64,000 bases of DNA, taken from positions 1-64,000 of the IMG/VR virus record IMGVR_UViG_3300029305_001878. One strand, written 5' to 3'. Source of the stretch: a virus. Its lineage: Duplodnaviria > Heunggongvirae > Uroviricota > Caudoviricetes. The notes under the pieces were generated by a model. The model was not told where the DNA came from, searched no databases, and was given only the letters and a program-made list of their open reading frames with translations. Both the position numbers and the translations under genes were made by a program. This document shows positions 3,045 to 64,000 of this stretch, piece after piece (within the stretch, counting starts at the first letter, position 1; every line of letters starts with the position of its first letter).

Positions 3045-5495
3045 ATGCCTGAAATGCAGAAGGACTTGGTCCTTTCTATTAATGAATATGCCTATGTTCT
3101 TGACCGAACTAAGGGTAATGTAAGTTGCTGGGTTGGCCCCGCAAAGACTTCTCTTTCCACTTCCGATGAAATGGTTGTGTTTAATGAGAATACCAAGGCT
3201 TTTGAACCCGCACGAAATTATTATGAAGCAACTAAACTTTTCACTACCGCACCTGAAAACTGGTATGTGATTTTGAAGAACCCCACTGAAAATAATTCTC
3301 ATCCTCGTCCCGGCACTGCTAACAATCTGCCTGATAATATTCAGATTGGTCGTAAGATTAACATCCGTGGCCCTGTTTCTTTCCCTCTGTATCCTGGCCA
3401 GATGGCAAAGGTAATTAGAGGACACGCACTGCGCACTAACCAGTATCTGCTGGCTCGTGTCTATGAAGCAGAGGCCGCAAGTCAGTCTCAGGGTGAAATG
3501 TTGGATGCCGAAGGCAATAAAATTGAAACTGTAAATAAGTATGTTAATGGTCAGATTCTGGTCATTAAGGGTACTGAAGTTTCTTTCTATATTCCTCCTA
3601 CTGGCATTGAAGTCATTCCTGTTTCCAACGATTATCGTAAGGGTTATGTGCGCGAAGCCGTTACTCTGGAACGTTTAGAATATTGTATTCTGAAGGATGA
3701 AGATGGCAATAAGCGCTATGTTCACGGCCCCGAAGTGGTGTTCCCCGAGCCTACTGAAACTTTTGTAACTTCCCCCAAGGGTGGTTTTGTTTTCCGTGCT
3801 ATGGAACTGTCTCCCATTTCCGGTCTGTATATTAAAGTTATTGCCGAATATACTGATGATAAAAAGGTAGTTCATCCTGTTGGCGAAGAAATGTTTATTA
3901 CTGGTAATGACCAGATGATTTATTATCCTCGTCCTGAACACGCAATTATTAACTACGATGGCAAGTTGATGCATCACGCTATTGCTATTCCAGAAGGCGA
4001 AGGTCGCTATGTTATGAATCGACTGACTGGCGAAATTCGTACGGTGCGCGGCCCCGCTATGTATCTGCCTGATCCTCGAACTGAAGTTGTCGTTAAGCGC
4101 AAGTTGAGTGAAAAGCAGTGTAATCTGTGGTTCCCTGGTAATGTTGATGCTCTGGCTTACAATCTGGCACTAACTGAAAAGGCTGTTGAAAAGTCCGTGG
4201 CTAAGTCTACCACTGCTAACTATATGGCCACAACTGATTGGGCTTTCTCTACCGCTGATACTGCTACTACTCTGGCAAATCTGGAAGCAAAGGCAAATAT
4301 CTCTCGTGGCACTTCTTACACCAAGCCTCGTACAATTACTCTTGAAACAAAGTTTGAGGGAGTTGTTGCGATTGACATTTGGACTGGCTATGCCGTAAAT
4401 GTCATTTCCAAGAATGGTGAGCGCAAGGTTGTGTGCGGCCCGCAGACTGTCCTGCTGGATTATGACCAGACTCTGGAAGTTTTGACTATGAGTACCGGTA
4501 AACCTAAAACCACTGATAATTGTATTCAGTCTGTATATCTGCGGCACGAAAACAATAAGGTCAGTGATATTATTAATGTTGAAACTAAGGACTTTGTGCG
4601 TTGTGCTGTTAAGGTTTCTTATTGCGTTGACTTTGATAAGAAGGCAATTAATAAGTGGTTCAATGTTGATAACTATGTTAAGTTCTTGTGCGACCGCGTG
4701 AGAAGTGAAGTTAAGCGTGTTGTTAAGAATTATACCATTGAAGAGTTCTACAATAATTACTCCACTATTGTTCACAATGTTGCTGTTTGTGCTGACCGTG
4801 AAAAGGCAGATGGTGATACTCGAATCGGCAGATACTTCCCCGAAAATGGTATGTACATTCACGATTGTGAAGTATTGAGCATTTCTGTTGAAAATGAAAT
4901 CGCAAAGATGCTGACTGCTCATCAGCAGGAAATGGTTCAGAAGTCTCTGGAACTGTCTGATGCTGAAAAGAGAGTTAAGGTTGCTACTGCTCTGGCTGAA
5001 GCCGAGAAGAAGGAACAGGAACTGCGCTCCCAGCAGTTGCTGAATAAGATGACCCTGCAGCGTGAGGAAGCAATTCGCAAGCAGGAAATCCAGAGTGAAA
5101 TTAATCGTAAGCAGGAAGCCGAAAAGATTGCTGCAAAGAAAGCCGAACAGGATATGCAGGTAATTATTGACGCTCTGCACGAAGCAAAGTTGGCTCGTGA
5201 TGTTAAGAATGCTGAATTTGAACTTTCTGCCGATAAGGCAAGAGTTGAACTTGCAGTGACAAAGCAGAATGCTTATACTGCTAATGTTGAAAAGATTATG
5301 GCTTCTATTGCTCCCGAACTGATTGCCGCAATGACTTCTACTTCTAATGCACAGTTGATGGAAACTGTTGCTCAGGCTATGTCTCCTGTTGCTATGGCAC
5401 GTGGTGAGTCTGTTGCTGAAACTACTAATCTGCTTCTGCGTGGCACTCCTCTTGAGGGTATGATTGCCGACTTTGTAAAGAAGTCTGCAGAATAA
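3045..5495 (+). CDS. mvp: Major vault protein (MVP) homolog
   Basis: 816 aa. N-terminal MVP repeat domains (YAYVLDRTKGNVSCWVGPAKT; SFPLYPGQ matches MVP PFPLYPGE). C-terminal shoulder plus long Glu/Lys/Ala-rich cap-helix coiled coil. GC-rich; no in-frame TAG. Own promoter and RBS aaaggag. Confidence 0.8.
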   Translation: MPEMQKDLVLSINEYAYVLDRTKGNVSCWVGPAKTSLSTSDEMVVFNENTKAFEPARNYYEATKLFTTAPENWYVILKNPTENNSHPRPGTANNLPDNIQIGRKINIRGPVSFPLYPGQMAKVIRGHALRTNQYLLARVYEAEAASQSQGEMLDAEGNKIETVNKYVNGQILVIKGTEVSFYIPPTGIEVIPVSNDYRKGYVREAVTLERLEYCILKDEDGNKRYVHGPEVVFPEPTETFVTSPKGGFVFRAMELSPISGLYIKVIAEYTDDKKVVHPVGEEMFITGNDQMIYYPRPEHAIINYDGKLMHHAIAIPEGEGRYVMNRLTGEIRTVRGPAMYLPDPRTEVVVKRKLSEKQCNLWFPGNVDALAYNLALTEKAVEKSVAKSTTANYMATTDWAFSTADTATTLANLEAKANISRGTSYTKPRTITLETKFEGVVAIDIWTGYAVNVISKNGERKVVCGPQTVLLDYDQTLEVLTMSTGKPKTTDNCIQSVYLRHENNKVSDIINVETKDFVRCAVKVSYCVDFDKKAINKWFNVDNYVKFLCDRVRSEVKRVVKNYTIEEFYNNYSTIVHNVAVCADREKADGDTRIGRYFPENGMYIHDCEVLSISVENEIAKMLTAHQQEMVQKSLELSDAEKRVKVATALAEAEKKEQELRSQQLLNKMTLQREEAIRKQEIQSEINRKQEAEKIAAKKAEQDMQVIIDALHEAKLARDVKNAEFELSADKARVELAVTKQNAYTANVEKIMASIAPELIAAMTSTSNAQLMETVAQAMSPVAMARGESVAETTNLLLRGTPLEGMIADFVKKSAE

Positions 5496-5502
5496 TTTAA
5501 TA

Positions 5503-5530
5503 AGGCGGTCTAAAGACCGCCCTATTTTTA
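5503..5530 (+). terminator. Rho-independent terminator
   Basis: ggcggtc taaa gaccgcc followed by a T-run. Confidence 0.6.
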
Positions 5531-5548
5531 TATAGGAAGGATTAAAAT

Positions 5549-62779: not shown

Positions 62780-63351
62780 TGAATAAATTTGAAGTAGTAA
62801 GTAGATTTAAAGATAGTAAAATTAATTTAATTCCTACTCGTAAAACTAATGGTAGTGCAGGTTATGATTTTTATGTTGCAGAAGATATTATTATTCCTCC
62901 TTACTTCGTTCAATTAGATAAAATGGAAGAATATGGTGGCCTCATTACTATGAATTTAGAAGAAGTTGCTAATAAAACAAAAGAATTAAAAGCAAGACCT
63001 ACTCTTGTTTCTTCTGGAGTAAAATGTTAGTTAGATGAAGGTTTGTATCTTGAACTTTCTACCCGCAGTTCTACTCCTTTAAAGTATTGGTTAATTCTTG
63101 CCAATAGTGTAGGAATTATTGATAGTGATTATTATAATAATGAAGATAATGAGGGCGAAATCTTTTTCCAATTAATTAATTTAAGTCCTTGGTATATTAA
63201 TCTTAAAGCAGGAGACTGTATTGGCCAAGGTATTATTAAACAGTATGATTTAACCGATAATGATTTTACTGATAAAATCCGTAAAGGCGGTTTTGGGTCT
63301 ACTGATATTTTTGATGCCTTCTTTACTCGGCGTCAAGATGATGGAAAATGA
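62779..63351 (+). CDS. dut: dUTPase; 1 TAG
   Basis: GSAGYD, RSS, GIIDSDY and GGFGST motifs. TAG at 63028 joins the two track ORFs. Confidence 0.8.
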
Positions 63352-63833
63352 GAATACTTGCATTTGATTAGTCCTCACGTGTAACTGGATATGCTGTTTT
63401 TGATAATGACAGATTAATCGCTTATGATAAATTCACTTGCGTTAGTGATGATATTGGTGAGCGACTCGTTCAAATTAGAAAAATGCTTTTGGGTTTAATT
63501 GCTATTTATGACCCAGATGCAGTCGCTTTTGAAGATATTTAGTTACAAAATAATATTATTAATAATGTAGAAACTTTTAAAGTTTTAGCAGAAGTTTTTG
63601 GTATATTTTATGAGACTTTAAAAGAAATTGGAATAGATTATCATATAGTTCCATCTGTTACTTGGAAAAGTAAATTAGGAATTAAAGGTGCGAAGCGTGC
63701 TGACTAGAAGCGTGCGGCCGCAGCCTACGTCGCGCAAACATATGGAGTAAAAGCCACGCAAGATGAATGTGATGCTATTTGCATTGGTGCTTATGTAAGC
63801 AATATACCTGAAGACTATGATTGGTCAGAATAA
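63348..63833 (+). CDS. ruvC: RuvC-like Holliday junction resolvase; 4 TAG
   Basis: ILAFD-TAG-SSRVTGYAVFD (compare ILGIDPGSRVTGYA), ...AFED..., C-terminal ...DAICIG. Continuous through TAGs to TAA 63831-63833. Confidence 0.65.
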
Positions 63834-63890
63834 ATAATTCTCATACCTCTAAATTTTAAAGTATTTAGAAATTGGAGGGAGGGAAAACCA

Positions 63891-64000
63891 ATGCTAACAT
63901 TTTTCGCAACCTATGGAACTGAAGTTATTCTTGCGGTTGTAATTTTAATTGCTACTGGCATTTGCAAATATTTCTATAATAAAGCAAAAGAAATTTAGAA
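63891..64000 (+). CDS. Small membrane protein (partial, runs off the window)
   Basis: RBS ggagggaggg. Hydrophobic; TAG at 63996 is read as sense. Confidence 0.3.

Follow-up and report, generated by a model that had tools for sequence, protein, structure and literature searches.

Which genes of a phage may carry an in-frame TAG, and what keeps the triplet out of the others? The question is raised by 64,000 nucleotides of a Caudoviricetes genome (positions 1 to 64,000 of the IMG/VR record IMGVR_UViG_3300029305_001878; this whole stretch is called the window), in which genes broken by TAG stand next to genes that never use it, the latter including the gene for a major vault protein homologue (MVP) and the replication genes. 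A preliminary description of this DNA had claimed that TAG usage splits the genome, with the replication core and the GC-rich accessory genes avoiding it, and had offered two explanations: amber suppression acting as a timing switch, and different evolutionary origins of the GC-rich set. In the present study we find that the split holds statistically and is conserved among related phages. The best account, to which we assign a probability of roughly 0.6, is that genes compatible with the standard code are read by the unmodified host machinery and that the TAG genes depend on a phage suppressor.

Results

TAG is read as glutamine

Genes were called with only TAA and TGA as stops, TAG being taken as sense. 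This gave 75 plus-strand genes with 19,983 codons and 75 in-frame TAG, the possible terminators of all 75 genes being TAA (57) and TGA (18). Under these two stops, regions without standard-code genes turn into long open reading frames (ORFs) whose translations are clear proteins broken by TAG alone. Full-length, domain-complete proteins were recovered by read-through in about 27 genes, and those restored include radical SAM, GIY-YIG, DHH/RecJ-like, Dda-like, guanylate kinase (Gmk), dUTPase, RuvC, NrdG, PIN-PhoH, N6/N4 methylase and endolysin proteins. Gene identities were taken from Pfam and PHROGs profile matches, and these matches extend across TAG positions.

The amino acid is indicated by the enzymes themselves and by comparison with 80 related phage loci from IMG/VR, which are partial loci aligned by tblastn with the proteins of the window. 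In three GIY-YIG homing endonuclease genes (HEGs) TAG stands where the catalytic motif Y[IV]GQ[TA] has its Q. Opposite the TAG codons of the relatives, this phage has Q at 108 of 430 positions, 8.9 times the background, with K next at 2.6 times; opposite its own TAG, the relatives carry Q at 7.4 times the background, or TAG again. Counting TAG as glutamine also evens the density of this residue, to 3.5% in the TAG-using genes and 3.1% in the replisome core. Alignments with PDB homologues span the TAG codons of Gmk and RuvC and place them in conserved regions but at variable positions, so that they do not by themselves identify the amino acid. Since TAG falls within Pfam domains and is matched with glutamine in alignments, the genes are read in genetic code 15, and we regard it as practically certain that TAG is a sense codon for glutamine.

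In three genes a TAG is no more than seven codons from the end and may be a true stop; these are the RNA ligase, whose lone TAG (13033) precedes TAA by 7 codons, the ORF at 40772-41155 and the tail-fibre-like gene (1153). A crude comparison of ORF coverage in the relatives under three single-stop reassignments did not discriminate among codes, and TAG was therefore counted in the relatives on the basis of homology. Standard-code gene calls on the source contig and on the relatives fragment about one third of the genes.

Partition of TAG among the genes

The 46 TAG-free genes hold 12,307 of the 19,983 codons, whereas random placement of 75 TAG leaves a mean of 5,752 and a maximum of 9,633 codons free (100,000 simulations, P<1e-5); the chi-square of the distribution among genes is 265 against 74 expected. 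The same holds for glutamine-type codons, 354 of 625 of which lie in TAG-free genes without one being TAG (P of about 2e-20), the share of TAG in the TAG-using genes being 28%. No TAG is found in the 5,531 codons of the replisome core (GyrB, GyrA, ligase, RNase H, AAA_24, DnaB, primase, DnaE and NrdD), nor among its 173 glutamine-type codons. The 46-47 TAG-free genes end in TAA or TGA and are therefore readable under the standard code.

When the 75 genes were tallied one by one, the genes named in the preliminary description fell on the side claimed for them: mvp, the TROVE gene, nadV/nadE, the flotillin, the topoisomerase, the ligase, the helicase, the primase, dnaE and nrdD all have 0 TAG, and the claim that the replication core and the GC-rich genes avoid the codon is borne out. 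Its assignment of TAG to structural genes, lysis genes, HEGs and a number of enzymes is right for all the genes that it listed but too broad as a rule, because the HEG of the recJ-like intron and a Phage_lysozyme2 gene are TAG-free. The gene described as a CHAP lysin is an endolysin by its PHROG match and has two TAG, CHAP itself not being confirmed.

The two sets do not form contiguous modules. Along the gene order 33 runs were counted where 29.4 would be expected (runs test, z=+0.96), and TAG-using genes overlap or abut TAG-free ones even within one operon. We also considered that TAG might substitute for CAG in the TAG-using genes; this was rejected, CAG/(CAA+CAG) being 15% there and 19% in the core genes.

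The avoidance of TAG is shared by the relatives. Their MVP sequences contain 1 TAG in 65,143 aligned residues, the TROVE-like protein 0 in 23,282 and the RNA ligase 2 in 16,746, and none occurs in Metallophos (8,348 residues), AAA_33 (5,430), flotillin (4,548), GyrB (4,936) or GyrA (2,646). In the same loci TAG reaches 10-13 per 1000 in the zinc (Zn)-ribbon/DUF2726-like paralogues, 10.6 in the radical SAM protein, 11.1 in PhoH and 12-22 in GIY-YIG endonucleases, in-frame TAA and TGA being almost absent in all these families. Each of the 1,968 CAG codons of the MVP orthologues is one C-to-T transition away from TAG, yet a single TAG is present; the permissive DUF2726-like paralogue family has 76 CAG and 372 TAG. 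The exclusion of TAG is family-specific and conserved across the clade, and is therefore held by selection; that the partition is non-random and so maintained we consider very probable. With about 2,000 CAG to one TAG, the MVP orthologues provide unusually clean comparative evidence for selection on the absence of a codon.

Promoters and transcription units

A 29-nt consensus promoter, TTGATTTTTnTAAAAAAATATGATATAAT, is of the sigma70/sigmaA type, mostly with an extended -10 element, and has 10 copies with at most 3 mismatches, all on the plus strand, where 0 are expected. It heads the genes or units of MVP, the ICEA-like endonuclease, the RNA ligase, NAMPT-NadE, flotillin, GyrB, RNase H-GyrA, ligase, DnaB-primase and DnaE. 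Four TAG-rich units (21163-25598, 26494-29105, 36046-38150 and 50182-52095) each begin past a terminator without this promoter. TAG is absent from 42 of the 54 genes in promoter-headed units, which have 1.9 TAG per 1000 codons, and from 5 of the 21 genes in other units, which have 7.8; the association is significant for genes (Fisher p=3e-5), for codons (2.5e-9) and without the endonucleases (1.6e-6).

At five places a strong hairpin is followed by TTGATTTTT...TGnTATAAT. The arrangement of these terminator-promoter modules suggests many short, independently started transcription units, and the promoter type suggests a host with a classical sigma70/sigmaA factor.

Position of TAG within genes

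Within TAG-using genes the codon lies towards the 5' end, at a median relative position of 0.32 against 0.54 for CAA/CAG (Mann-Whitney p=0.004; within-gene permutation P=0.006). The skew persists without doubtful ORFs and without the first 20-30 codons (P=0.002-0.005), and has the same direction in the relatives (0.42 against 0.54), although the latter data are not independent. An early TAG gate would abort translation cheaply, which fits a role in timing and one in dosage alike.

Suppressor tRNA in the relatives

A tRNA(CUA) is encoded in 14 of the 80 related loci, usually as a member of a tRNA array on the plus strand, 3-9 kb upstream of MVP and among tRNAs for A/U-ending codons. These suppressors are diverse (58% column identity) and too divergent for a search pattern. 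A sigma70-type promoter lies at most 160 nt upstream of the tRNA(CUA) in 6 of the 14 relatives, against 0.37 expected (p=8e-7), and in one locus (L073, 20567-20700) the tRNA is a stand-alone promoter-tRNA-terminator unit. The suppressor of the clade thus looks, by its promoter sequence, like an early transcript.

In two loci (L045, 1672-1800; L047, 1415-1545) the tRNA(CUA) is directly followed by a hepatitis delta virus (HDV)-like motif, GGTATC..GGCCTTTTCGTGGCGATACT, with a covarying P2, and the motif recalls the theta ribozymes found beside suppressor tRNAs. The window has a 9-bp GC-rich hairpin between dnaE exon 2 and gmk (57165-57195, GGCCGGTCC-TTTTCGT-GGGTCGGCC) without a U tail. It was rejected as a theta ribozyme, since it has no P2 strand and no adjacent tRNA and only its loop is common with the motif of the relatives.

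Discussion

Proposed timing of translation

We propose that upon infection host RNA polymerase would transcribe the promoter-headed units, whose TAG-free genes would be translated without delay by the unmodified host apparatus. The same promoter class would also drive an amber-suppressor tRNA(CUA) of the phage, as seen in the relatives and not in the window. This tRNA would accumulate and compete with release factor 1, and only then would full-length products of the TAG genes appear: tail fibres, endolysin, homing endonucleases, nucleases and some enzymes of nucleotide metabolism. In such a scheme TAG would be a translational delay or attenuator on top of transcriptional control, acting on single genes within an operon. 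The preliminary description had set an early promoter of the suppressor, combined with expression of the TAG genes at all times, against its timing switch. The first half of this, a promoter of early type, is what a number of the relatives have (6 of 14), and it is still compatible with a delay; any such delay would then be due to the build-up of the tRNA and its competition with release factor 1 and not to late transcription of the tRNA, in agreement with the published timing model.

Several observations weigh against a timing role. No suppressor tRNA (ARAGORN, Rfam), release factor 2 or glutaminyl-tRNA synthetase was found in the window or in its flanks (7 kb upstream and 7.2 kb downstream), and Rfam gave no tRNA, intron or ribozyme in the window at gathering thresholds or at E<=1. 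TAG is carried by 12 of the 54 genes in promoter-headed units, including the DUF2726-like gene behind promoter 7776 (4 TAG) and dUTPase and RuvC behind promoter 61680 (1 and 3). NrdD is TAG-free inside a TAG-rich unit and its activase NrdG has TAG, which fits an effect on dosage at least as well; one lysozyme-like gene and one HEG are free of TAG. A shared late-promoter motif was looked for upstream of the TAG-rich units and only A/T-rich words were found, and 'early' is here a reading of likeness to the sigma70 consensus.

The timing switch is therefore upheld in part. The TAG-free genes do mostly stand behind sigma70-type promoters, and avoidance has been selected across the 80 relatives, but the interleaving of the two sets, the NrdD/NrdG pair and the position of dUTPase and RuvC behind an early-type promoter speak against it. 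That the partition follows the expression programme seems probable to us; for TAG being itself the cause of the timing, the odds appear slightly below even. A more specific proposal, tentative and rather unlikely as it stands, is that amber codons are placed as 5'-proximal gates on single genes of early transcripts and, together with a suppressor made from the same promoter, form a feed-forward, gene-by-gene delay timer independent of transcription, strictest for HEGs and nucleases, in which a CAG-only layer of host-like codon usage would mark the genes that must be translated first.

Alternative explanations

The strongest competitor, although we judge it unlikely as the full account, is an effect on dosage. 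Suppression of UAG would be imperfect and cut the yield at each TAG throughout infection, so that selection would purge the codon from proteins that are long or needed in quantity (vault shell, flotillin, gyrase, polymerase, NrdD) and tolerate or favour it in scarce or harmful ones (HEGs, RuvC, the NrdG activase, endolysin, tail fibres). Such an effect would agree with the interleaving within operons, with 0 TAG in the 751 codons of NrdD against 1 in NrdG of the same unit, and with the HEGs being the densest of all genes in TAG (13-36 per 1000). The early-type promoter of the relatives' suppressor means that it may be present from the start, and the 5' skew would also limit wasted synthesis. 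By itself, however, dosage leaves the link with the promoter class and with promoterless terminators unexplained; in other recoded phages the recoded codon does occur in structural proteins made in abundance, according to Borges et al. 2021 (bioRxiv 10.1101/2021.08.26.457843); and a Gmk with five TAG and no other glutamine codon is odd for mere tolerance. Dosage and timing are not mutually exclusive.

Ancestry fares much worse. On this explanation the TAG-free genes, chiefly the GC-rich set, would have been imported recently from standard-code organisms and have had no time to gain TAG. The GC-rich genes do differ from their surroundings, with a GC of 0.39-0.44 against 0.32 for the window and with 89 CAG to 7 CAA (DNA ligase and DHH gene excluded); glutamine is almost exclusively CAG at 3045-5495, 8718-10274, 11761-13056, 13805-15574 and 19528-20985, and MVP itself has 27 CAG and 0 CAA. 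The same genes, however, occur in the 80 relatives at about 50-70% protein identity, TAG-free and CAG-biased, and the AT-rich replisome genes are equally devoid of TAG. In the relatives' MVP the preference for CAG (1,968 against 279 CAA, 88%) exceeds that for AAG (68%) and GAG (35%) and persists in orthologues with a GC content at third codon positions (GC3) of about 0.2, so it is probably a selected, host-adapted codon usage of the GC-rich set. Since MVP and its companions are TAG-free across 80 relatives, recent import cannot explain that state and they are old residents of the clade. The different evolutionary origin suggested in the preliminary description is unneeded and, as a recent event, poorly supported; we consider recent foreign origin very improbable and reject it.

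We likewise reject the notion that the TAG are ordinary stops in pseudogenes, fragments or wrong frames, for which the chance is negligible: standard-code calls on the source contig do split the TAG-using genes, but a 333-codon frame holds 12 TAG but neither TAA nor TGA, domain matches cross the TAG positions, comparison with relatives reveals virtually no in-frame TAA/TGA where TAG is frequent and aligned with glutamine, and on an identical contig (L003) the gene calls of another pipeline include dUTPase and RuvC at full length.

Gene content of the window

Every recognisable gene of the window is on the plus strand, the GC content is 32% and the GC skew is positive throughout. Coordinates are collected in Table 1.

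Table 1. Coordinates of genes, introns and transcription signals in the window, with in-frame TAG codons.
Feature	Position	Strand	In-frame TAG	Basis or remark
Tail-fibre-like gene	82-1170	+	3 (136, 937, 1153)	structural
DUF285 gene	1167-2930	+	4 (1212, 1668, 2787, 2847)	Pfam
N6/N4 methylase and DUF2726-like gene	7058-8670	+	methylase 7175, within domain; DUF2726-like 8020, 8128, 8449, 8488	
Unit of ORF, 349-aa ORF, small ORF, radical SAM and Cys-rich protein	21163-25598	+	ORF 21181; 349-aa ORF 0; small ORF 22884; Cys-rich protein 24432	
Radical SAM gene	23020-24324	+	5 (23152, 23197, 23323, 23437, 23449)	Pfam
Unit of small ORF, PIN-PhoH, endolysin and transmembrane protein	26494-29105	+	PIN-PhoH 27761; transmembrane protein 29040	
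Endolysin	27973-28758	+	2 (28312, 28609)	PHROG
Transmembrane, coiled-coil, GIY-YIG protein	36046-37044	+	12	densest gene; 333 codons without TAA/TGA
Unit with the preceding gene, a TAG-free ORF and a 273-aa ORF	36046-38150	+	273-aa ORF 37506	
GIY-YIG HEG in dnaB intron	43487-44164	+	43541 (Q of YIGQT), 43559, 43604, 43835	
DHH (RecJ-like) exon 1	46548-47807	+	46683, 46758, 46839, 47124	
Coiled-coil protein and Dda/RecD-like helicase	50182-51934	+	coiled-coil 50227, 50251, 50305, 50404; helicase 51380	
GIY-YIG HEG in dnaE intron	54825-55649	+	54882 (Q of YVGQT)	
Gmk	57270-57854	+	5 (57348, 57657, 57708, 57720, 57756)	no CAA/CAG
GIY-YIG HEG and NrdG	60264-61702	+	HEG 60498, 60663, 60780, 60867; NrdG 61403	
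dUTPase and RuvC	62779-63833	+	dUTPase 63028; RuvC 63369, 63540, 63705	
MVP, 816 aa	3045-5495	+	0	Pfam MVP_shoulder/Vault_3; codon counts
DUF2828/DUF7788 (TROVE-like)	8718-10274	+	0	Pfam
NAMPT (13805-15574), 141-aa gene, NadE (16035-16889)	13805-16889	+	0	Pfam
Metallophos, AAA_33 kinase, Metallophos, small genes, flotillin (19528-20985)	16999-20985	+	0	
GyrB (29206-31098), small ORF, RNase H, GyrA (31850-34213), ATP-dependent DNA ligase (34269-35387)	29206-35387	+	0	
AAA_24 (RecA-like ATPase)	39551-40516	+	0	Pfam
DnaB exon 1 with in-frame LAGLIDADG intein	41145-43313	+	0	Pfam
DnaB C-terminal part (44400-44840), small ORF, primase (Toprim; 45093-46193)	44400-46193	+	0	
GIY-YIG HEG in recJ-like intron	47972-48628	+	0	Pfam; sole TAG-free HEG of five
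Phage_lysozyme2 gene, signal peptide	49311-50084	+	0	Pfam; exception to TAG-using lysis genes
DnaE exon 1 (PHP, pol III alpha, finger)	52145-54643	+	0	Pfam
DnaE exon 2 (HHH_6)	55768-57144	+	0	Pfam
NrdD, 751 aa	57934-60189	+	0	Pfam; within TAG-rich unit
Putative intron in dnaB	43314-44400			group I-like
Putative intron in recJ-like DHH gene	47808-48750			group I-like
Putative intron in dnaE	54644-55767			group I-like
Consensus promoter copies	2981-3009, 6392, 7776, 11159, 13765, 16944, 17730, 25599, 29146, 38147, 40550, 52082	+		regex list
Looser promoter copies	31332, 34210, 35384, 35637, 61680	+		
Terminator-promoter modules (starts of terminator/promoter)	2936-3009 (2936/2981), 11123-11187 (11123/11159), 13724-13793 (13724/13765), 16911-16972 (16911/16944), 29106-29174 (29106/29146)			
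Terminators before TAG-rich units	20988-21019, 26385-26413, 36010-36037, 50093-50126			

Three related, putative group I-like introns, each with a GIY-YIG ORF, split dnaB, the recJ-like DHH gene and dnaE. In all three GCTAACGGGGAA recurs as a 5' block and GTAGGGCTACTATTGATACGTAGT...AAGATAGTC as a 3' block, and beyond each putative 5' splice site the reading frame runs into stops. Their splicing is predicted from the sequence, and Rfam (Intron_gpI included, at gathering thresholds and at E<=1) gave no match to the three putative introns. The TAG at 47808, the first triplet of an intron, and that at 48720 are intronic and not coding. The HEGs in the introns of dnaB, the recJ-like gene and dnaE carry 4, 0 and 1 TAG, and the GIY-YIG genes with TAG have 12, 4, 1 and 4. 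The DnaB intein (about 41829-42905) is inserted in the Walker A motif (GVGK/...THN/T) and has no TAG, unlike the intron-encoded endonucleases, as expected since it is translated as part of a TAG-free protein.

The nrdG region (61203-61702) has its first 27 codons (MRYSRIIYNDFTAAPGVSLTFFVQGCP, then TGA) out of frame with the remainder (..IRCKGCHNPELQ..), and eight extra bases lie within the CX3CX2C cluster motif; the break could reflect a frameshift, decay to a pseudogene, an error of assembly or recoding. Next to the radical SAM gene stands one whose product is rich in Cys, Gly and Ser over a long stretch (CGNSCQVNSGNTCGCSNSGC...; both within 23020-25598), and the two could form a maturase-substrate pair. 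The ICEA-like restriction endonuclease (6452-7765, 0 TAG) adjoins the N6/N4 DNA methylase (1 TAG), in what looks like a phage-borne restriction-modification pair. The genes of MVP and the TROVE-like protein are interspersed with three paralogues that have Zn-ribbon repeats and a DUF2726-like C-terminus (5549-6391, 7936-8670 and 10354-11127). Two of the three are TAG-free in the window, yet the family is among the TAG-richest in the relatives. Minus-strand antisense ORFs of up to 556 aa lie opposite GC-rich genes (4170-5555, 9156-9998, 12304-13098 and 13796-15466), and we take them as shadow ORFs of the strong codon bias, because the plus-strand genes have domain matches.

The phage and its relatives

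The MVP protein of the window is identical on JGI contig 3300031555|Ga0318466_10001127 (185,543 bp), where the window corresponds to about 30,046-94,045; the phage genome is thus at least 185 kb, and the window is part of it. A megablast search with 15 kb of the window against GenBank phages gave no match, and a search with the MVP protein found only three distant huge phages (38-43% identity) and no close phage relative in GenBank. IMG/VR holds an MVP with 49-74% identity to that of the window on at least 104 contigs, many of them 130-240 kb long, and 80 of these loci served for the comparisons. A scan of IMG/VR with a protein of the downstream flank gave no match, and an exact 31-mer of the upstream flank had 0 hits in metagenomes.

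Each flank has a large ORF on the minus strand, with 11 in-frame TAG in one (L001 6755-9343, at about 68.6-71.2 kb in window numbering) and 6 in the other (L005 1123-4032, upstream). Standard-code annotation breaks both into many small genes; they are probably tail-fibre-like, although neither has a family match, and one of them has a dockerin-like DVNGDGKID motif. A Gp10_C tail protein upstream of the window has 1 TAG and an N-terminal motif in common with the tail-fibre-like/DUF285 region at 82-2930.

Comparison with known recoded phages

No crAss hallmark genes were seen in the window, whose replisome consists of DnaE, DnaB and gyrase, unlike that of crAss-like phages. The hosts of crAss-like phages are expected to have Bacteroidota-type promoters, as known from Bacteroides, and the sigma70-type promoters found here argue against such a type. 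Putative introns and an intein in replication genes do occur together with recoding, as in the crAss-like phages of Yutin et al. 2021 (PMC7886860), especially those of the Zeta group. That study places reassignment mostly in the late-gene portions of the genome, finds suppressor tRNAs imperfectly correlated with recoding, and reports replication genes dense in group I introns and inteins.

Borges et al. 2021 (bioRxiv 10.1101/2021.08.26.457843) describe alternatively coded gut phages (Lak, crAss-like, Jade, Sapphire, Agate, Garnet, Amethyst and Topaz) whose replication genes keep the standard code, whereas their structural and lysis genes and, preferentially, an intron endonuclease within an early gene are recoded, and propose a timing model in which the machinery of the code change is itself standard-code and early. 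The present phage resembles those in that TAG is glutamine, the host presumably uses the standard code, only a fraction of the genes is recoded, replication genes are spared while structural and lysis genes and intron-borne endonucleases carry the codon, and suppressor tRNAs occur in only some genomes. It differs from them in that recoding there concerns one or a few modules, whereas recoded and standard genes are here interleaved gene by gene, with Gmk, dUTPase, RuvC, Dda, RecJ-like and NrdG among the recoded. The arrays of the relatives, with A/U-ending anticodons beside the suppressor, are comparable to the T4-like tRNA arrays matched to late-gene codon usage that Borges et al. discuss, a further likeness being that the genes of the present genome fall into two classes of codon usage, one GC-richer and host-like, the other AT-rich.

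Kienbeck et al. 2024 (PMC10879173) found theta (HDV-like) ribozymes with the suppressor tRNAs of recoded gut phages, and an 'RNA ligase, DRB0094 family' enriched 140-fold in such phages. The HDV-like motif after tRNA(CUA) in L045 and L047 is in line with this, whereas the window, unlike those phages, contains no tRNA and no convincing ribozyme. Its RNA ligase matches Pfam RNA_ligase (PF09414) and is a possible counterpart of the DRB0094 ligases.

Partial recoding and the timing model have thus already been published by Yutin et al. and Borges et al., and this phage is a further example. The gene-by-gene mosaic, the association with promoters and the 5' skew are not described in the parts of the two studies that were consulted, and rest here on one genome and the partial loci of its relatives. 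They offer three testable refinements of the timing model, namely a promoter class that predicts TAG, suppressor tRNAs on that same promoter class and a 5' skew of TAG. Furthermore, a large and previously uncharacterised clade of vault-protein-encoding phages of 130-240 kb is added to the partial users of code 15.

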